Shown in pieces: positions 8,819-17,292 of a DNA stretch of 48,101 nucleotides. Each line of letters starts with the position of its first letter. Within the stretch, counting starts at the first letter, position 1. A program made the position numbers and the translations under genes. Below the pieces are notes generated by a model. The model was not told the DNA's origin, made no database searches, and saw nothing but the letters and a program-made list of their open reading frames with translations. The stretch lies in IMG/VR virus record IMGVR_UViG_2939521961_000008, one strand, 5' to 3'. This stretch comes from a virus. Lineage: Duplodnaviria > Heunggongvirae > Uroviricota > Caudoviricetes.

Positions 8819-9709
8819 TCAGGCTGCCAGATCATTATTTCCGATGGAAGCATAATAAGCTTTTTCTGCTTCTGCCGGAGGAATATGGCCCAGCCTTTCC
8901 AGCAATCGTCGATTGTTATACCAGTCCACCCACGTTAGTGTGGCCAGTTCCACTTCTGTCCGGTTTTTCCAGCTATTACGGTGTATTACCTCCGCTTTGT
9001 AAAGACCATTGATGCTCTCAGCCATCGCGTTGTCATACGAGTCGCCAGTACTCCCTGTTGATGCCAGTAATCCGGCTTCCTTAAGCCGCTGCGTGTAGGC
9101 CAGCGATACATACTGAGAACCTTTATCACTGTGATGGATTGTGCCGGACGGCCGACGGGCCCACAACGCCTGCTCCAGTGCATCCAGCACGAATGTTGTT
9201 TCCATGGATGATGAGACCTGCCATCCCACGATGTATCCGGCGAACACATCAATGATGAACGCCACATAAACGAAGCCCTGCCATGTGCTTACCCAGGTAA
9301 AATCAGCCACCCACAACTGGTCTGGACGTTCTGCCACGAACTGACGGTTTACGCGGTCGCATGCGGCAACGGCTTTCCGGCTGACGGTAGTGCGGACCTT
9401 TTTACCCCGGAGAACACCGGCAAGTCCCATAACTGCCATGAGACGTGCCACAGTGCATCTGGCCACTCTGATACCTTCCCGTAACAACTGACGCCAGACT
9501 TTACGCACACCGTATACCTGGTGATTTTCATCGTATACGCGCTGTATCTCTTTCTTCAGCCAGTCATCGTGCTGCGCACGGGCACTGCGTTTATCCGGAT
9601 GATGTCGCTGTTGCTGACAATGGTAATACGTTGACGGGGCAATATGCAGTTCGCTGCATACCGGTCCGACCCCGTACTGCTCACGCAGCTTATCCAGCAG
9701 TGGCATCAT
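8819..9709 (-). CDS. IS3-family transposase OrfB (DDE integrase domain), 296 aa
   Basis: DDE-type catalytic core (…WVADFTW…, …HSDKGSQY…, …DNAMAES…); overlaps orfA end. Confidence 0.9.
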
Positions 9710-10032
9710 TTTTTCCAGAGGCGGTCGAACTCCGCCTTCGCAAAATAAGCGGAAGCCTGGCGAAGGATATCGTTACTGCGGCGCAGTTCACGATTTTCAC
9801 GTTCCAGCTCTTTCAGACGCTGACGTTCAGCACTGGTGAGCCCACCATCACCGCCCCCGGTATCCCGCTCATGCTGGCGAACCCAGACACGCAGAGTCTC
9901 CGGCGTACAGCCAATCTTTGGGGCAATGGAACAAATTGCCGCCCACTGTGAGTCATATTCATCCTGACTTTCCAGAACCATACGAATCGCCCGCTGACGG
10001 ACTTCGGGGGAAAAACGAGTATTTTTAGTCAT
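9706..10032 (-). CDS. IS3-family transposase OrfA (HTH), 108 aa
   Basis: [22 protein letters not shown]... with leucine-zipper-like C-terminus; ends in GGAAAAAATGA where orfB begins (frameshift window). Confidence 0.9.
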
Positions 10033-10095
10033 CCTGTTTACCTCTTTCTCAGGGAGTTTAGTCTCCAGGATTTCCGGGGCGGTTCATACAGATAA

Positions 10096-10455
10096 AGATC
10101 TAAAAACAGATCCCCCCCTAAATCCCCCCGGGGGAATCGAGGTGTCAAAAAGTTTGACCCTCTGGATATTGCTTTGCCGAACTGGATTTCTGTCTCGCTT
10201 TGGCGTGAGTGGGTTGAATTTCGCCAGGCATTGCGAAAACCGATTCGAACGGAGCAGGGCGCTAACGGGGCGATACGGGAGCTGGAAAAATTCCGCCAGC
10301 AGGGTTTTTCACCTGAGCAGGTGATTCGACACAGCATCGCCAATGAATACCAGGGCTTGTTCGCGCCGAAAGGTGTTCGACCTGAGACGTTACTCCGACA
10401 GGTTAACACCGTCTCGTTACCGGATAGTGCGATCCCGCCAGGCTTCAGGGGGTAA
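10096..10455 (+). pseudogene. ydaU: ydaU-like replication gene, C-terminal part downstream of the IS (different frame from the N-terminal part)
   Basis: Open frame from 10096 giving ...VKKFDPLDIALPNWISVSLWREWVEFRQALRKPIRTEQGANGAIRELEKFRQQGF...; no start codon of its own except TTG. Confidence 0.5.
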
Positions 10456-11230: not shown

Positions 11231-11992
11231 ATGGAGACTGTTTTTGACGCACTGAAAGCAATGGGAAAAGCCACATCCATAGAACTTGCTGCGCGACTTG
11301 ATATCAGTCGTGAAGAAGTGCTGAACGAACTATGGGAACTGAAAAAAGCTGGTTTCGTTGATAAAAGCGCGTACACCTGGCGTGTGGCTGATAACAACGT
11401 TCAGCAGGAACAGCCAATGCAGGCAGAACTGCCGGAAGAAACCACCACGGCAACAGAAGCGAAAATCTCAGAGTGCGATTTAACCGCGACGATTGAACAA
11501 CGCGGACCACAAACGGCGGATGAACTGGCTACGCTGTTCGGTACAACATCCCGCAAAGTTGCTTCAACGCTGGCAATGGCAATCAGCAAAGGTCGTCTGA
11601 TTCGCGTAAACCAGAACGGTAAAATTCGTTACTGCATACCAGGTGATAATTTACCAGCAGAGCCGAAAGTTGAATCGGTAGCGGAAACTGATGGTAAAGC
11701 CTTTCCTCAGCCAGCCGGTGTTGCGTTACCAGTACAGGAAGCGGCAACACAGGAAGATATTAAAACAGAAACTGTGGCGGACATTGTGCAGTCGCTGCCA
11801 TCGTTTACTGAAACGCAAGCGGATGACCTAGTTTTACCATCGCTGCATATGGCAAACCGCGAACTGCGTCGGGCGAAAAATCATGTCCAGAAGTGGGAGC
11901 GAGTCTGCGCCGCGCTGCGGGAGCTGAACAAGCACCGGGATATTGTCCGACAGATTGTCGATTCCTCCAGTCGTATTGTGTCGGAAAAGTGA
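11231..11992 (+). CDS. hypothetical protein with two winged-helix-like segments and a C-terminal helical region
   Basis: ATG preceded by GGGAGG; segments [30 protein letters not shown] and [32 protein letters not shown]. Confidence 0.55.
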
Positions 11993-12007
11993 TTGCCGGA
12001 GGCGCTT

Positions 12008-12430
12008 ATGGCAAAAGTTTTTACACAGGAAGAGCGTGAAAAAATTAAGGAGCAGGTTGTTGAGTTGGTACGCCAGAGTGGGCGCGAGACGTTAAGGCAA
12101 CTGGAGGCCAAGACAGGTGCGACAAGATATCTGATGAGCATTCTTGCCAGAGAGTTGGTTGCCAGTGGCGATGTATACAACTCTGGCTATGGGTTATTCC
12201 CGTCTGAACAGGCTCGTAAGGATTGGAAAAACGCCCGCAAAAAACTATCCAGGGCAAAGGTGAAAAAAACGGTTGTGGTTGATCCTGACCTTATCTGGTC
12301 ATTACCAGACGGAGAAATACGCCGCTATGACAGGCGTCAGAACATAATTTGTCGTGAGAGCAGGAGGAGCGAAGTTATGCAGCGTGTGCTGGCGTTCTAT
12401 CGGGGAAACTTTCAGGAGGTGATGGAGTGA
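12008..12430 (+). CDS. hypothetical protein
   Basis: ATG at 12008 preceded by GGAGG; ORF track frame 11993..12430. Confidence 0.5.
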   Translation: MAKVFTQEEREKIKEQVVELVRQSGRETLRQLEAKTGATRYLMSILARELVASGDVYNSGYGLFPSEQARKDWKNARKKLSRAKVKKTVVVDPDLIWSLPDGEIRRYDRRQNIICRESRRSEVMQRVLAFYRGNFQEVME

Positions 12431-12723
12431 GGGTGAGAGTTTATATTGCCGGTCCAATGACGGGATATGAAAATTTCAACCGTGAGGCATTTCACAAGGT
12501 GGAAGAGGAACTGAAACGGGAAGGGCATACCGTCTTAAACCCGGCAGTACTTCCGGACGGGCTGACACAGCCGCACTACATGGATATTTGCATGGCAATG
12601 ATTCGTTGTGTGGATGCGATTTACATGCTGAATGGCTGGCAGCGGTCAGCGGGCGCTAAGGCAGAGCTGGCACTGGCGGAGAAACTGGGGCATGCGGTGA
12701 TTTATCAGGAGGTGGCTCAATGA
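12427..12723 (+). CDS. DUF4406-family protein (nucleoside 2-deoxyribosyltransferase-like fold)
   Basis: 98 aa, VYIAGPMTG...NPA motif pattern typical of this family; GTG start overlapping upstream stop. Confidence 0.65.
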   Translation: MRVRVYIAGPMTGYENFNREAFHKVEEELKREGHTVLNPAVLPDGLTQPHYMDICMAMIRCVDAIYMLNGWQRSAGAKAELALAEKLGHAVIYQEVAQ

Positions 12724-13181
12724 GAGAGGTTAACTATGAGGCGCTTCGTGAGGCAGCACAAAACTATCAGTCGACGCTGGCGTGGTATCAGGCTACCCCG
12801 GACAGCCCAAATGCTGAACGGGATTGTGATGCGGCTCTTGCTGCGTTTAAGCGTCATATCCGTCATCGGGAAGCGGATATTATCGCTGGTTTGCTGGATG
12901 GACTGGAAGAAGCAAAATCACAACTCAACGAGCAGCGTGAGTATTACGAAGGCGTTATCTCTGATGGGAGCAAGCGTATTGCTGAACTGGATGCGCGGGA
13001 AGTTCAATTACCGACTCGCTACGACCTTCGATATGGACACCCGATAAATGCAGATGAGCGACATGTCATGATACCTAAAGAAAATGGCAGTTGGCTTTAC
13101 CTGATTGACCTAGAACACGCATTACGCGTCGCTGGCATTCGCATCAAAGGAGAGGAGCATGGAAATAAAACCAGAGGATGA
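12720..13181 (+). CDS. hypothetical protein
   Basis: 153-aa ORF, ATGA overlap with upstream gene, RBS GGAGG. Confidence 0.5.
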   Translation: MREVNYEALREAAQNYQSTLAWYQATPDSPNAERDCDAALAAFKRHIRHREADIIAGLLDGLEEAKSQLNEQREYYEGVISDGSKRIAELDAREVQLPTRYDLRYGHPINADERHVMIPKENGSWLYLIDLEHALRVAGIRIKGEEHGNKTRG

Positions 13182-13515
13182 GTTAAGCAATATCGTTTTA
13201 TTTCCGGTAAAAGAGGATGACCCTCGTAATCAGGTTAATTTTCTTTATGAGCCATCGGAAAGACCATATTGTCATCACGCCTCTGTCCGGGTTGACGAAA
13301 AAGAGCGTCAGGTCCGCTGTAAAATCTGCGGTGCAGTTGTGGAGCCATTTGACTGGATGCTCTCTGTGGCGAAAAGAGAAACTAGGCTGGCAGATGATGT
13401 AAAGCTATTGCGCCAGGAGGAACAGGAAAGGCGGAAAAATATAGAAAAGTTAATTCAGATTGAGCGTAACGCGAAAGCGCGGATACGCAGGGTGACAAAA
13501 TCCAGAACTGAATAA
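13159..13515 (+). CDS. hypothetical protein with possible zinc ribbon (CHH...CKICG) and basic coiled-coil tail
   Basis: 118-aa ORF with GGAGAGGAG RBS. Confidence 0.5.
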   Translation: MEIKPEDELSNIVLFPVKEDDPRNQVNFLYEPSERPYCHHASVRVDEKERQVRCKICGAVVEPFDWMLSVAKRETRLADDVKLLRQEEQERRKNIEKLIQIERNAKARIRRVTKSRTE

Positions 13516-13565
13516 ATAAATTTAGCGCTGTAAATAAAATCTAATCCTTAACTGGAGGTATATTT

Positions 13566-13778
13566 ATGTTAAATACACAGAAAGCCATTAATGCGGAAAA
13601 ATATAACGAGTGGGCAAGAAAATTCTCTGAGCAGATTTTTAAAATTACTGGCGATGAGAATGCGGCAAAAAATGAATTAGAACCGTGGACGCCTGAAGGA
13701 GCCGACCCAAATTATTGCTGGAGGGAGGTTGATCCAGTTGATGCTGCAAATGAAGCTATGAGTTATCACAACGATTAA
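13566..13778 (+). CDS. hypothetical protein, 70 aa
   Basis: RBS CTGGAGGT upstream; followed by a CCGCCC-GAAA-GGGCGG hairpin. Confidence 0.5.
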   Translation: MLNTQKAINAEKYNEWARKFSEQIFKITGDENAAKNELEPWTPEGADPNYCWREVDPVDAANEAMSYHND

Positions 13779-14029
13779 TGTCAGGAGGCCGCCCGAAAGG
13801 GCGGTAATGAATGGTCACATTATTTAGAAAAAATATCCGCGAAAGAGTAGAACAACAGAATTTCTGTTTCTCATTCTGTTTATCGTGTTGATGATACCGA
13901 TATCCCCGTTAATCCTAGTCTGGATAATCGGAAAAATAATTGAGCCAGTTATTGAATTGTATAACGACGTGGTATGGGCGTCATTCAACACACTGCACAA
14001 TAAAATTAATCCGTATAAGGAAAACTGAT

Positions 14030-14293
14030 ATGGCAACTTTGACAAAAAAAGAACGGGCATGGTTGAACGAATTACAGGAAGTTCTTGATCGCTGTCCATC
14101 ACCGAAAAAAATTGGCTTTTACACCATTGGCGATAAAAGCATTTACCTGTATGACCTACGCCGCATGGATGAAATCATGGAGGCTCTTGATAATCGTTCG
14201 TCGATGGATTGGTGTGTTGCTGTTCATGATATGAATGCAGGGTTTGATGAAAAGATTTTGTTCCCCTCATCAGTTGAAAGCACTGCGGGTTAA
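14030..14293 (+). CDS. hypothetical protein, 87 aa (start at MATLTKKERAW)
   Basis: Internal Met of ORF 13940..14293 preceded by AAGGAAAA; same orientation as neighbours. Confidence 0.5.
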   Translation: MATLTKKERAWLNELQEVLDRCPSPKKIGFYTIGDKSIYLYDLRRMDEIMEALDNRSSMDWCVAVHDMNAGFDEKILFPSSVESTAG

Positions 14294-14303
14294 GGAGTAA
14301 CAC

Positions 14304-15173
14304 ATGACCACTATTACCAAAGAACGTATTGAATTGTTCATTAAAAATCCGCTTGAAAACGGGCTTACCCGTGGTGAACAAATGGAACTGGCACGGATTG
14401 CGCTGGCATCGCTGGAAGCAGAGCCGGTGGCAAAGATTATAGCTCATTACCCATTAGGGGTTGACGTAGGCAAACAAAAATTTGTACAGGCCATTAGAGA
14501 GCTTCCTGACTTTGGCGGATATCTATTTGCCGCCCCTCCAGCGCCGATAGTGCCGGAAGAAATGTATTGGCAGGATGCGCCAGTTGAAGGCAGCAGCAAA
14601 GCGGCTGCATACGCTACAGGCTGGAACGATTGCCGCGAAGCCATGTTTCAGTCCGGAAACTTTCGGGAAAATAAAGATTCGTCAACCAATAATTTTCGGA
14701 AAATCCCGGAAGCGTCAACCAGCTCTCCGGTAACTCCGGCTCTTCTGCCTGGTGGTTTCACCATTGAGGAGGCGAAGGAATTACATGAAGACCTGGCACG
14801 CAGCCACATAAGCAAGGCCTTAAGTGGCGAAAAGATGAAAAAGAAAGATCGCGATGCTGATTTGCGCTGGATTCATGGCGTTATAGTTCAGGCAGCGTGG
14901 TTTGTAAAAGCATCACTGGAGCAGAATGCACTATCGGGCAACTATCCGGTAACTCCGGATAGTTGGATAAGCTGTAGTGAGCGAATGCCGGATACCAAAA
15001 CAGCCGTTCTTGTTGCCAGGGATTTTGGCAGGAAAGGTGACTGGCGAATGAAATGGGCGACTTACATCCCGGGGCATCCTGACGCTAATGATGGGTGGAT
15101 AATACCTGGTGCGTCGTGGATACCATCACACTGGATGCCTCTACCAGAACCGCCGCAGGAGGTGCGCCAATGA
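14304..15173 (+). CDS. hypothetical phage protein with C-terminal DUF551-like domain
   Basis: Strong RBS TAAGGAG; C-terminal segment SWISCSERMPDTKTAVLVARDFGRKGDWRMKW...GWIIPGASWIPSHWMPLPEPP. Confidence 0.6.
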   Translation: MTTITKERIELFIKNPLENGLTRGEQMELARIALASLEAEPVAKIIAHYPLGVDVGKQKFVQAIRELPDFGGYLFAAPPAPIVPEEMYWQDAPVEGSSKAAAYATGWNDCREAMFQSGNFRENKDSSTNNFRKIPEASTSSPVTPALLPGGFTIEEAKELHEDLARSHISKALSGEKMKKKDRDADLRWIHGVIVQAAWFVKASLEQNALSGNYPVTPDSWISCSERMPDTKTAVLVARDFGRKGDWRMKWATYIPGHPDANDGWIIPGASWIPSHWMPLPEPPQEVRQ

Positions 15174-15639
15174 ACTGGCCTGAAGCATTTGCAATTACAG
15201 GCGTTGCTATGGCTATCGCTTTTTTAGTATATGTTATTTGTCGGTGAGGGTAAAAACGTTCGCCGGGATTAACACCAAAGGAGGGAATATGTCGGATGAT
15301 ATATCACTGGCAATGGAAGGTGCGCTGGCTGTTGTTGCTGTTGTGGGCGTTTACTGCCTGGTTGTGTTTTTGATGGATCGACTAGGGAACTGAATTCATT
15401 ACGATATGGGAATTCCCATATCGGGTAAAAACGGTTTGCGGGAAAAGGAGAGTTAAGTAGAATTGCTGCGGGTGCTTGAGGCTATCTGTCTCAGGCATGA
15501 ACACCAAAAGGCAGATAGAGAAAAGCCCCAGTTAACATTACGCGTCCTGCAAGACGCTTAACATTAATCTGAGGCCCAATCTATGTCTCACAAATGTAGG
15601 TTAGCCTCTTACGTGCCGAAAGGCAAGGAGAAGCAGGCT

Positions 15640-15795
15640 ATGAAGCAGCAAAAGGCGATGTTAATCGCCCTGATCGTCATCTGTTTAACCGTCATAGTGA
15701 CGGCACTGGTAACGAGGAAAGACCTCTGCGAGGTACGAATCCGAACCGGCCAGACGGAGGTCGCTGTCTTCACAGCTTACGAACCTGAGGAGTAA
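15640..15795 (+). CDS. hokD: Hok/Gef-family type I toxin (HokD/RelF-like), 51 aa; overlapping mok-like frame begins at 15583
   Basis: MKQQKAMLIALIVICLTVIVTALVTRKDLCEVRIRTGQTEVAVFTAYEPEE: single TM helix plus conserved Hok periplasmic tail; longer overlapping ORF in the same frame. Confidence 0.8.
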   Translation: MKQQKAMLIALIVICLTVIVTALVTRKDLCEVRIRTGQTEVAVFTAYEPEE

Positions 15796-15863
15796 GAGAC
15801 CCGGCGGGGGAGAAATCCCTCGCCACCGCTGATGTGTCAGGCATCCTCAACGCACCCGCACTT

Positions 15864-15890
15864 AACCCGCTTCGGCGGGTTTTGTTTTTT
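15864..15890 (+). terminator. rho-independent terminator after hok
   Basis: AACCCGC-TTCG-GCGGGTT hairpin followed by TTTGTTTTTT. Confidence 0.6.
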
Positions 15891-16242: not shown

Positions 16243-17292
16243 GTGCGGGTATTACTTCGACCTGTTCTGGTACCGGAACTCGGGCTGGTGATCGTTAAGC
16301 CGGGCCGTGAATCCATGCCGGTATTCCACAATACCCGGGTACTGGTGGAGCCGGAACCGAAAAGCATGCGTAATCTGCCGTCCGGGGTCGTTCCTGCCGT
16401 TCGCCAGCCGCTGGCGGAGGATAAATCACTGCTGCCATTTTTCAGCGATGAGCGGGTGATTCGTGCAGCTGGCGGCGCTGGTGCACTGTCTGACTGGTTA
16501 TTACGTCACGTGAAATCCTGCCAGTGGCCACACGGCGATTATCATCACAGCGAAACCGTTATTCACAGTTACGGTGCTGGCGCAATGGTGTTGTGCTGGC
16601 ACTGCGACAACCAGCTGCGCGACCAGACCTCCGAATCACTTGAGCAACTTACTCAACAAAATCTGACAGCCTGGATGATTGACGTCATACGCCATGTAAT
16701 GAATGGCACGCAGGAGCGGGAATTATCGCTGGCTGAATTATCCTGGTGGGCAGTCTGCAATCAGGTGGTGGACGCATTACCTGAGGCAGTATCGCGTCGC
16801 TCTCTGGGATTACCGGCGGAAAAAATCCGCTCCGTATACCGTGAAAGCGACATCATACCGGGAGAACAGACCGCCACCAGCATACTGAAGCAGCGCACAA
16901 AAAATATTGCGCTACCGCCTCACACCCACCAGCAACAGAACCCACCACAGGAAAAGACGGTGGTCAGCATTGCCGTTGATCCGGAGTCTCCGGAATCCTT
17001 CATGAAACGACCTAAACGTCGCCGCTGGGTAAATGAGAAATACACACGCTGGGTAAAGACACAGCCGTGTGCGTGTTGTGGTAAGCCAGCGGACGATCCT
17101 CATCATCTGATTGGTCATGGTCAGGGTGGAATGGGAACAAAATCCCACGATATTTTCACGCTACCGCTGTGTCGGGAGCATCACAACGAGCTTCATGCGG
17201 ATCCGCTGGCGTTCGAAGAAAAGCATGGTTCCCAGGTTGATTTAATTTTTCGTTTTCTTGATCACGCCTTTGCAACCGGCGTGCTCGGGTAA
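16243..17292 (+). CDS. ydfU: DUF968-family protein (YdfU-like) with C-terminal Cys/His motif
   Basis: 349 aa; GTG start after GGAGG; C-terminal CACCGKPADDPHHLIGHGQGGMGTKSHDIFTLPLCREHHNELH. Confidence 0.7.
   Translation: MRVLLRPVLVPELGLVIVKPGRESMPVFHNTRVLVEPEPKSMRNLPSGVVPAVRQPLAEDKSLLPFFSDERVIRAAGGAGALSDWLLRHVKSCQWPHGDYHHSETVIHSYGAGAMVLCWHCDNQLRDQTSESLEQLTQQNLTAWMIDVIRHVMNGTQERELSLAELSWWAVCNQVVDALPEAVSRRSLGLPAEKIRSVYRESDIIPGEQTATSILKQRTKNIALPPHTHQQQNPPQEKTVVSIAVDPESPESFMKRPKRRRWVNEKYTRWVKTQPCACCGKPADDPHHLIGHGQGGMGTKSHDIFTLPLCREHHNELHADPLAFEEKHGSQVDLIFRFLDHAFATGVLG

Follow-up and report, generated by a model that had tools for sequence, protein, structure and literature searches.

Related phages and genomic setting of the block

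In bacteriophage lambda, the ren and nin genes occupy the stretch of the PR operon between P and Q and have been published as a non-essential "chain of interlinked" genes. Two-hybrid assays reportedly detected interactions of Rex proteins with lambda O and Ren. Published work on lambda Ea22, encoded in the exo-xis region of the leftward operon, describes a pro-lysogenic phenotype (PMC7093339, PMC10834534). Among Rac prophages, the copy in Escherichia coli K-12 has a truncated ydaW and none of the genes that would follow it, and phage Rac-SA53 carries the order ydaV, ydaW, lygF, a DUF4406-sized gene, and an ead-type gene.

We analyzed a 48,101-nucleotide stretch of viral DNA (the window) and focused on an accessory block at positions 11231 to 15173. 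The block is 100% identical to part of a Rac-like prophage that E. coli O26:H11 carries at its ttcA locus. In that prophage it is preceded by annotated int/xis/recET/kil genes and ydaT-ydaU-ydaV, the last of these, just before the block, encoding a DnaC-like loader; it is followed by hokD, DUF968, RusA, and antiterminator Q. The position thus resembles lambda ren-nin, with small, overlapping genes on one strand between the gene for a helicase loader and those for the Holliday-junction resolvase and Q, and with a Ren-family gene near the start. Unlike lambda nin, the block lacks homologues of NinB, C, D, E, F, G, H, and I, and searches of Pfam, PHROGs, and NCBIfam assigned none of its ORFs to a Nin family. 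Its cargo consists of DUF1627, DUF4406, Ea22-like, and DUF551 cassettes, some of which lambda and Stx phages carry in their early-left exo-xis region. A preliminary description had called the block nin-like; this holds for its position between ydaU/ydaV and hokD-DUF968-RusA-Q, but not for its gene content. The annotated features are as follows.

11231-11992, + strand: ORF1, 253 aa, DUF1627/YdaW family, two winged-helix domains plus a C-terminal helical segment (Pfam, PHROG)
12008-12430, + strand: ORF2, 140 aa, basic (pI 9.9), DUF977/"LygF"/Ren-like winged-helix protein (Pfam, PHROG)
12427-12723, + strand: ORF3, 98 aa, DUF4406, minimal nucleoside-deoxyribosyltransferase (NDT) fold, GTGA-coupled to ORF2 (Pfam)
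12720-13181, + strand: ORF4, 153 aa, Ea22 homologue, ATGA-coupled to ORF3 (Pfam, BLASTP)
13159-13515, + strand: ORF5, 118 aa, Zn-knuckle (C-x-H...C-x-x-C) followed by one long conserved basic helix (PHROG, alignment, model)
13566-13778, + strand: ORF6, 70 aa, acidic (pI 4.5), GC 0.40, phrog_4659 (PHROG)
13784-13813, + strand: DUF4014 translation-initiation region, Shine-Dalgarno (SD) GGAGG 13784-13788, hairpin 13788-13805, ATG 13811 (sequence, folding)
13811-14028, + strand: DUF4014 pseudogene, small membrane protein family (Pfam, alignment, RefSeq)
14030-14293, + strand: ORF8, 87 aa, acidic (pI 4.9), phrog_1714 (PHROG)
14304-15173, + strand: ORF9, 289 aa, mosaic, C-terminal DUF551 at residues 220-285 (Pfam, PHROG)

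The eight intact genes and one pseudogene are closely spaced, as first described, with stop/start overlaps of the GTGA (12427) and ATGA (12720, 15170) types, a 23-nt overlap of the ORF4 and ORF5 reading frames (13159-13181), and a strong SD 5' of each intact ORF. In a sequence scan of the block, promoter-like and terminator-like sites occurred at chance level, and the layout is explicable by ordinary operon packing alone. GC content is 0.37 to 0.44 over ORF5 to ORF8 versus 0.50 elsewhere. Upstream, within the window, an IS3-family element interrupts the ydaU initiator gene; transcription from the early promoter may therefore stop short of the block, and the prophage itself could be defective.

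Two winged-helix proteins and a DUF4406 protein

ORF1 matches Pfam DUF1627 (E = 1e-98) and phrog_630 (E = 2e-130), and concordant HTH profile matches at residues 4-46 and 84-139 agree with its initial reading as a protein with two winged helix-turn-helix domains. Residues 1-151 are 95% identical to K-12 YdaW (b1361), and the identical ORF1 protein is found on 820 contigs. ORF2 starts at ATG 12008; a start at TTG 11993 was considered and rejected. It matches DUF977 (E = 1.5e-29) and phrog_142, "Ren-like exclusion protein" (E = 5e-45), and its counterpart in Rac-SA53 is named LygF. Lambda Ren falls in the same PHROG (E = 1.6e-41) and gave no match to Pfam DUF977. This shared PHROG, together with a C-terminal 20-residue motif common to both proteins, points to a putative relationship between ORF2 and lambda Ren. 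ORF1 and ORF2 most likely bind DNA or replication/exclusion proteins.

The assignment of ORF3 to DUF4406, with a nucleoside deoxyribosyltransferase fold, was upheld (Pfam E = 2e-37; structure model pLDDT of 91). Its strand-loop-helix motif, S-x-G-A-x-x-E, is kept family-wide, with S74 conserved in 100% and E80 in 98.6% of 146 diverse representatives of a superfamily comprising 17,798 clusters. In fold and motif ORF3 resembles the NDT/MilB/Rcl (DNPH1) superfamily, and the motif is reminiscent of D92...E98 of NDT and S87...E93 of Rcl. With just 98 residues, ORF3 differs from NDT in missing the C-terminal third, which in NDT completes the active site; hhalign detected no sequence-profile match to L. 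leichmannii NDT. Among related phage proteins, some carry an NDT or CMP hydrolase annotation and others are joined to a MazZ-like pyrophosphatase domain. None of the ten longest close ORF3 relatives tested carried an informative domain fusion, and a literature search found no characterized DUF4406 member. Motif and topology suggest that S74 and E80 are counterparts of the catalytic residues of NDT or Rcl. ORF3 is most likely an active N-glycosidase acting, like MilB and Rcl, on a nucleoside 5'-monophosphate-type substrate, in which Glu80 would be the nucleophile and Ser74 a phosphate ligand.

An Ea22 homologue paired with a Zn-knuckle protein

ORF4 matches Pfam Ead_Ea22 (43.5 bits; cutoff, 27 bits) and is 40% identical to lambda Ea22 over residues 1-108 by BLASTP (E = 5e-17); its RseB-domain name comes from a marginal match (23.3 versus 22.3 bits). 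The block had been described as uncharacterized, which does not apply to ORF4, nor to ORF2 with its place in the lambda Ren PHROG. ORF4 shares with lambda Ea22 the N-terminal segment and coiled-coil core, whereas its C-terminal domain is unrelated; it is mosaic at the C terminus, like the published Ea22 variants of Stx phages, and its final 17 aa also occur in ArgO145 gp18. Unlike lambda ea22, the ORF4 gene lies in the rightward operon and is followed by a Zn-knuckle gene, ORF5.

The Zn-ribbon/coiled-coil protein of the preliminary description corresponds to ORF5 (phrog_1621; E = 1e-55), in which C38, H40, C54, and C57 are invariant and the motif LRxEExxRRxNIEKLIQIERNAKARIRR is conserved. In the structure model (pLDDT of 74), a small beta ribbon accompanies a helix spanning residues 63-117; the sole fold match was a weak one to the TFIIB Zn-ribbon. 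The family was found only in Enterobacterales; likeness to lambda Ea8.5 extends over only 13 residues. The ORF4-ORF5 junction is kept in ArgO145. The pair travels as a two-gene cassette and, judging from homology to lambda Ea22, most likely has a modulating role in the choice between lysis and lysogeny.

Variable genes and a frameshifted DUF4014 cassette

ORF6 (phrog_4659; E = 3e-50) has no Pfam match and is homologous to gp16 in the early-left region of ArgO145. ORF8 (phrog_1714; E = 1e-50) has no relatives in Pfam or PDB, and the identical protein occurs on about 1,000 contigs. The DUF551 assignment of ORF9 applies to its C-terminal domain (Pfam E = 7e-19); separate PHROG matches cover the N terminus (residues 1-50 and 1-120), the middle (99-147), and the C terminus. 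The reading frame is intact and preceded by an AAGGAG SD, and the identical 289-aa protein occurs on at least 999 contigs; RefSeq annotates it as three fragments.

A 45-aa hydrophobic ORF at 13891-14028 had been proposed as an independent gene. We rejected this candidate: the ORF aligns to positions 28-72 of the 72-position Pfam DUF4014 profile, no SD lies 5' of 13891, and the absent N terminus is encoded in a different frame from ATG 13811. Alignment and translations against intact ArgO145 gp12 reveal the frameshift, a one-base loss in an A-run at 13828-13833 (A6 here, A7 in the closest intact allele, and AAAAGAA in ArgO145), and RefSeq likewise flags the gene as "frameshifted." Since the 45-aa ORF is the C-terminal remnant of this gene, the block comprises eight intact genes and one pseudogene.

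The GNRA-loop hairpin noted previously is real: it has a 7-bp stem and a GAAA loop, and folding of the 61-nt context gave -19.7 kcal/mol (z = -3.65). No T-run follows it, and the terminator scan made no call. The same SD-hairpin-ATG layout precedes DUF4014 alleles that lie behind varied upstream genes, and a C-to-T difference between alleles preserves pairing. The hairpin thus travels with the DUF4014 cassette, between its SD and start codon. T4 genes 38 and 25 have split ribosome-binding sites with a hairpin between SD and AUG. Similarly, the DUF4014 SD and ATG are 22 nt apart with a stable 18-nt hairpin between them; by analogy, folding would restore normal SD-ATG spacing. Unlike in T4, the gene that follows here is a pseudogene.

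Mosaicism and distribution

Across 80 E. coli viral contigs carrying DUF4406, gene order was fixed and content variable. DUF4406 was accompanied by DUF977 in 61, DUF1627 in 53, the Zn protein in 47, and Ead in 44, and counterparts of ORF6 to ORF9 were present in only 8 to 13. Rac-SA53 is 91% identical to the block at the DNA level over 1.5 kb, and its cassettes differ after the third gene (ydaW-lygF-rac19-ead...). The Stx2 phage ArgO145 has homologues of ORF5, ORF6, and DUF4014 in its early-left region. Among 80 loci from other species, DUF4406 lay among replication, methylase, and lysis genes with no constant neighbor, and neighborhood comparison did not find the block genes as a conserved unit outside Escherichia. 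The block is probably a chain of horizontally shuffled cassettes rather than one system.

Interpretation of the block

We consider it likely that the block is the counterpart of nin, an accessory segment in the early-rightward operon of a Rac-family lambdoid prophage from E. coli O26, assembled from independent, shuffled cassettes. If the lambda pattern applies, its transcription would start at the rightward early promoter once the prophage is induced and run through the replication genes toward the Q antiterminator, with translation by coupling. It would comprise three layers: an ORF1-ORF2-ORF3 trio linked to the replication module and common in Escherichia prophages; the Ea22-like ORF4 with the Zn-knuckle/long-helix ORF5; and four variable cassettes, namely, ORF6, ORF8, the frameshifted DUF4014, and the DUF551 mosaic ORF9.

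An unlikely alternative is that the block is a counter-defence island in which most genes each neutralize an immunity system, such as Rex-type exclusion, retrons, or nucleotide signaling. The position is typical of accessory regions, ORF6 and ORF8 are small and acidic, and ORF3 has a fold in common with NDT/TIR-type enzymes, by which nucleotide signals are produced or degraded. Two links to counter-defence, both indirect, are the Ren family name of ORF2 and the K-12 ydaW product, equivalent to ORF1 residues 1-151, which relieved the toxicity of retron-Sen2 RcaT in a plasmid-library screen; the latter, however, was an overexpression result with a truncated protein. Older literature links Ren to Rex in lambda itself, but our literature search did not recover this link and found none to defence for DUF4406, DUF977, or DUF4014. 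The phenotype of the ORF4 homologue Ea22 concerns lysis-lysogeny rather than anti-defence, PADLOC returned no significant match, and the block genes are not co-inherited outside Escherichia. Given the Ren family name and the ydaW-RcaT result, the ORFs do not all reduce to housekeeping nin families devoid of any defence link; neither PADLOC nor gene co-occurrence gave positive evidence of anti-defence activity. Individual genes may nonetheless act in host takeover or counter-defence.

More doubtful still is a reading in which the prophage is defective and the block its decaying cargo, made up of remnants without current function. The split ydaU, the frameshifted DUF4014 gene, the RefSeq treatment of ORF9 as fragments, and the K-12 Rac prophage, with its truncated ORF1 copy and deletion of the remainder, would all fit such decay. 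However, of the nine ORFs all but one are undamaged and preceded by a strong SD, the exact proteins occur on hundreds to about 1,000 contigs, and homologues are carried by plaque-forming or inducible phages (Rac-SA53, ArgO145, and the vB_EcoS series). Moreover, specific residues of ORF3 and ORF5 are conserved throughout their families, which points to purifying selection. Least probable of all is a single ORF1-ORF2-ORF3 module in which the winged-helix proteins regulate or target the DUF4406 enzyme: the order is fixed, E. coli co-occurrence is frequent, and ORF2 and ORF3 are translationally coupled, but many E. coli DUF4406 loci have just one of the two partners, DUF1627 or DUF977/Ren-like neighbors occur in only 1 to 2 of the 80 other-species loci, and no neighbor family is conserved.

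As a shuffled accessory segment the block is ordinary, with all of its genes in catalogued phage families. A few of them are reasonable candidates for counter-defence tests. The best gene to follow up is ORF3, the DUF4406 gene.

A densely packed block in a Rac-family prophage

The interval at 11231-15173 was 100% identical to chromosomal sequence from Escherichia coli O26:H11 and related strains. In strain 11368, the matching prophage is integrated and adjoins ttcA (RefSeq annotation); there the block is preceded by intR, xisR, ralR, recT, recE, racC, ydaE, kilR, a repressor pair, ydaT, ydaU, and ydaV and is followed by hokD, a DUF968 protein, RusA, an antitermination protein, lysis genes, and terminase. 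The prophage that carries the block is a Rac-family lambdoid prophage. Upstream of the block in the window, an IS3-family element with two overlapping transposase ORFs (8819-10040, − strand) interrupts a ydaU-like replication initiator gene, the C-terminal remainder of which lies at 10174-10455. This arrangement was present in 26 of 5,426 complete E. coli genomes, a subset to which the window belongs. The prophage is probably replication defective through this insertion, which may also be polar on the block.

Genes of the block, with window coordinates, strand, and start codon
ORF1, 11231-11992, + strand, ATG: DUF1627 (YdaW) protein
ORF2, 12008-12430, + strand, ATG rather than an upstream TTG: DUF977, Ren-like protein
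ORF3, 12427-12723, + strand, GTG: DUF4406 protein
ORF4, 12720-13181, + strand, ATG: Ead/Ea22 family protein
ORF5, 13159-13515, + strand, ATG: protein with a zinc knuckle and a long helix
ORF6, 13566-13778, + strand, ATG: small acidic protein
DUF4014 remnant, 13811-14028, + strand, ATG: frameshifted gene
ORF8, 14030-14293, + strand, ATG: small acidic protein
ORF9, 14304-15173, + strand, ATG: mosaic protein with DUF551

Every intact gene lies on the + strand behind a strong Shine-Dalgarno (SD) sequence. The tight same-strand packing with GTGA/ATGA overlaps noted in the preliminary description was confirmed at 12427, 12720, and 15170; ORF4 and ORF5 share 23 nt, and the other gaps span 1 to 15 nt except for 50- and 112-nt cassette boundaries. 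GC content shifts from approximately 0.50 to 0.37-0.44 over ORF5 to ORF8. In a scan of the interval, promoter-like and terminator-like sites were not more common than in shuffled sequence. No credible Rfam family was detected in the interval (two chance-level matches, E = 0.3 to 0.5), and none of six further antisense or alternative-frame ORFs had a PHROG match.

Two tiny hydrophobic ORFs follow ORF9 (15170-15247, 25 aa; 15289-15393, 34 aa). The former is ATGA-coupled to ORF9 and absent from the RefSeq annotation, and the latter is a RefSeq hypothetical protein. Just 3′ of the block, 15470-15795 and 15804-15885 contain a sok antisense RNA (120 bits), hokD, and then an isrK-like match, which is subthreshold (27 bits, E = 0.008) and has a clean terminator at its end (15864-15881).

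Position, gene content, and mosaicism

The block had been likened to the nin region of lambda, where ren-nin, located between P and Q, comprises nonessential, interlinked delayed-early genes. Its position (by RefSeq gene order) and accessory nature agree with this comparison, whereas its gene content does not. Like lambda nin, the block lies between replication genes and a Q-type antiterminator on the same strand, as seen from the RefSeq gene order in the identical O26 prophage, and consists of small genes that overlap or lie close together. No homologue of NinB through NinI was found among the Pfam, PHROG, and NCBIfam matches of any ORF. DNA-processing functions, which in lambda reside in nin, are here supplied by RusA and the downstream DUF968 protein (16243-17292), a full-length match to phrog_96 “HNH endonuclease” (E = 2e-175).

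The presence of block genes varies among related prophages, which fits dispensability for plaque formation. Among 80 E. coli viral contigs chosen for DUF4406, many of them partial so that counts are lower bounds, DUF977 occurred in at least 61, DUF1627 in 53, the zinc protein in 47, Ead in 44, and ORF6 to ORF9 in 8 to 13. Across these contigs the order DnaC-like, DUF1627, DUF977, DUF4406, Ead, zinc protein, ..., DUF968, RusA was kept. Stx2 phages carry the ORF5, ORF6, and DUF4014 cassettes on the opposite arm, within the early-left region. We also examined 80 DUF4406 loci in other species, drawn from Enterobacterales, Vibrio, Shewanella, Aeromonas, Firmicutes, Chloroflexota, and Planctomycetota. 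Neighbor clustering across these 80 loci detected no constant DUF4406 neighbor: replication, repressor, methylase, and lysis genes were found alongside it, with DUF1627 or Ren-like neighbors at only 1 or 2 of the 80. The block is not one system.

Mosaicism extends into single genes. The DUF551 domain previously assigned to ORF9 was recovered as the C-terminal end of a protein assembled in frame from three or more modules. The exact 289-aa protein is encoded on about 1000 contigs; RefSeq (PGAP) nevertheless divides 14304-15173 into two fragments annotated as partial pseudogenes and a 62-aa DUF551 protein, although the 289-codon ORF is intact. ORF6 and ORF8 are small, acidic, and members of PHROGs of unknown function.

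ORF1 is YdaW and ORF2 belongs to the Ren-like family

ORF1 matched DUF1627 far above threshold (327.6 bits against a 28.1-bit cutoff, E = 1e-98; Pfam), and many concordant helix-turn-helix profiles support the two winged-helix regions proposed for it, the second of which also gave a weak match to phrog_142 (E = 3e-4). The protein and K-12 YdaW, a truncated copy, share 95% identity over 151 residues; the rest of the block is absent from K-12 Rac. We rejected the equation of YdaW with DUF977, since K-12 YdaW matches ORF1 and not ORF2.

ORF2 is a DUF977 protein (Pfam) that aligned to phrog_142, “Ren-like exclusion protein,” over profile positions 2 to 115 of 116 (E = 5e-45), a profile that lambda Ren also matched (E = 1.6e-41). 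With lambda Ren and ORF2 as separate queries, phmmer converged on the same proteins from two further species. The pairwise match between ORF2 and lambda Ren was confined to a C-terminal motif, and lambda Ren fell below the Pfam threshold for DUF977. A place directly behind the helicase-loader gene would be expected of a Ren-family gene; here ORF1, whose second winged helix gave the weak phrog_142 match noted above, stands between the loader gene ydaV and ORF2. In other phage records ORF2 is named LygF, a name without a function, and a literature search for DUF977, DUF4014, and LygF returned no functional studies. Work by Toothman and Herskowitz from 1980 reportedly found that lambda Ren gives resistance to Rex exclusion.

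A frameshifted DUF4014 gene behind a hairpin

A 45-aa micro-ORF (13891-14028) had been listed as a gene, a call that did not hold. It covers only positions 28 to 72 of the 72-position DUF4014 profile (Pfam), and no ribosome-binding site was found in the sequence preceding 13891. Alignment with the intact gp12 of Stx2 phage ArgO145 showed the loss of one base from an A-run (13828-13833), which is A6 in the window and A7 in the closest intact allele among viral contigs; adding one base to the run yielded full-length DUF4014. RefSeq also labels the gene frameshifted. The true start of DUF4014 is the ATG at 13811. The A6 allele was found in six independent viral contigs and is thus an inherited or recurrent slippage variant. 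An antisense ORF (13824-14102, − strand) matching phrog_20982 (E = 7e-28) was set aside, as it most likely represents a shadow of DUF4014 that some annotations of phage genomes list as a gene.

The hairpin reported upstream is real (13788-13805; 7 bp, GAAA loop) and folded within its 61-nt context at −19.7 kcal/mol (z = −3.65). An intrinsic terminator was rejected: the stem is followed by AATGAATGGTCAC rather than a T-run, and the terminator scan did not report the site. The hairpin is located between GGAGG (13784-13788) and the ATG at 13811, an SD-to-ATG distance of 22 nt. This SD-hairpin-ATG unit precedes DUF4014 alleles with differing upstream genes, and a C-to-T change among them keeps the pairing; alleles that lack the hairpin carry an ordinary ribosome-binding site instead. 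We infer that the hairpin belongs to the cassette's translation start, as a putative split ribosome-binding site like those of T4 genes 38 and 25.

ORF4 and ORF5, an apparent two-gene cassette

ORF4 matched Ead/Ea22 (43.5 bits against a 27-bit cutoff; Pfam) and aligned with lambda Ea22 at 40% identity over the N-terminal segment and coiled coil (E = 5e-17; BLASTP). Judged by sequence, ORF4 and lambda Ea22 are truly homologous in this segment and the coiled coil. The alignment stops at residue 108, beyond which the C-terminal domain of lambda Ea22 is unrelated to that of ORF4; the mosaic pattern described for Ea22 variants of Stx phages is thus also seen here. Ea22 has been reported to favor lysogeny (PMC7093339, PMC10834534). 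The RefSeq name “RseB domain” for ORF4 reflects a marginal match (23.3 against 22.3 bits) and was rejected; Ea22 homology explains the rest. The C-terminal 17 residues of ORF4, whose codons run into the start of ORF5, also occur in ArgO145 gp18, and gp18 likewise precedes an ORF5 homologue with an identical overlap. ORF4 and ORF5 therefore travel together like a two-gene cassette.

ORF5, listed earlier as a Zn-ribbon/coiled-coil protein, carries an invariant zinc knuckle (C-x-H...C-x-x-C) accompanied by an extremely conserved basic helix. The structural model comprised a disordered N terminus, a small ribbon, and a single helix of about 55 residues; in a Foldseek search of the PDB, it gave only a weak match to the TFIIB zinc ribbon (E = 0.4). 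The family was detected in Enterobacterales only. Residues 36 to 48 (13264-13302), the first zinc-ligand segment PYCHHASVRVDEK, resemble lambda Ea8.5 PCRHHEGVYVDEG, whose gene, like ORF5, directly follows an ea22-type gene. Alignment of the ORF5 profile with lambda Ea8.5 by hhalign returned only this 13-residue motif at 5% probability, a lead rather than homology.

ORF3 is a predicted nucleotide N-glycosidase

The assignment of ORF3 to DUF4406 was upheld by profile match. This family comprises 17,798 clusters at 50% identity (E ≤ 1e-3). The ORF3 model (pLDDT 91, from a 40-sequence alignment) was predicted to adopt the flavodoxin-like fold of nucleoside deoxyribosyltransferase (NDT). Among 146 aligned representatives, S74 was conserved in 139/139 (100%) and E80 in 137/139 (98.6%). 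Together with G76 and A77, these residues define an S-x-G-A-x-x-E signature that spans the loop and helix following strand 3; G9, F22, N18, R19, and Y51 were likewise nearly invariant. In the model, E80 would occupy the strand-loop-helix position expected for a catalytic glutamate, which would head the helix behind the penultimate strand; this placement is based on motif and topology. We take the spacing of the signature to match D92...E98 of NDT and S87...E93 of Rcl, in both of which the glutamate serves as nucleophile; the serine of Rcl contacts the 5′-phosphate. Alignment of the DUF4406 profile by hhalign with an approximate L. leichmannii NDT sequence was not meaningful.

Among related viral proteins, some carry NDT or CMP hydrolase annotations and others are joined to MazZ-like pyrophosphatase domains; no second domain was detected by Pfam in the ten longest close DUF4406 relatives. 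Matches to the ORF3 model in BFVD included uncultured-phage proteins that combine a DUF4406-fold domain with a MazZ-type dATP/dGTP diphosphohydrolase N-terminal domain. DUF551 has also been reported fused to MazZ (PMC10834534), and the MazZ fusions hint at a nucleotide-pool context for DUF4406 and DUF551, two otherwise unrelated cassettes. Our literature search returned no paper characterizing any DUF4406 member. From modeled fold and motif, we predict that ORF3 is a nucleotide N-glycosidase.

Counter-defense potential of the block

No significant match to a PADLOC-DB defense model was obtained for any ORF; ORF1 gave subsignificant winged-helix matches (E = 1.5e-4 and above, 15 to 20 bits) and the other eight sequences none. 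The NCBIfam search returned nothing significant, and PDB sequences included no solved relative of ORF1 to ORF5, ORF8, or ORF9, nor of the ORF3 and ORF5 profiles. The hypothesis of an anti-defense activity draws on the Ren family assignment of ORF2 and on an overexpression screen in which K-12 ydaW was found to block the retron-Sen2 toxin RcaT; both supports are indirect, and neither establishes such an activity for a protein of the window. Two-hybrid contacts between Rex and Ren have been reported for lambda.

A more specific reading, which we consider very improbable, casts ORF3 as a minimal N-glycosidase or NDT/TIR-fold mimic that temperate phages direct against nucleotide-based immunity, with the nearby YdaW-type protein, the K-12 fragment of which blocked RcaT in the screen above, as partner. 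ORF3 would then degrade an alarm signal derived from NAD or nucleotides or, alternatively, interfere with NDT-fold effectors such as RcaT, which has an NDT-like fold. The start of the block would thereby be a counter-retron or counter-signaling pair attached to the replication module.

The block is ordinary and already catalogued, its sequence being in RefSeq and each gene assigned to a named family. What it offers to screens of accessory genes in EHEC prophages is a cleaner list of targets: (i) one “gene” is dropped as a frameshifted remnant; (ii) one Ea22 homologue and one Ren relative are identified; and (iii) the K-12 “ydaW” retron-blocker result corresponds to ORF1 rather than to DUF977. 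The single item of the block worth a bench experiment is DUF4406: given its confidently modeled fold and evident catalytic motif, one enzyme assay could name the family.
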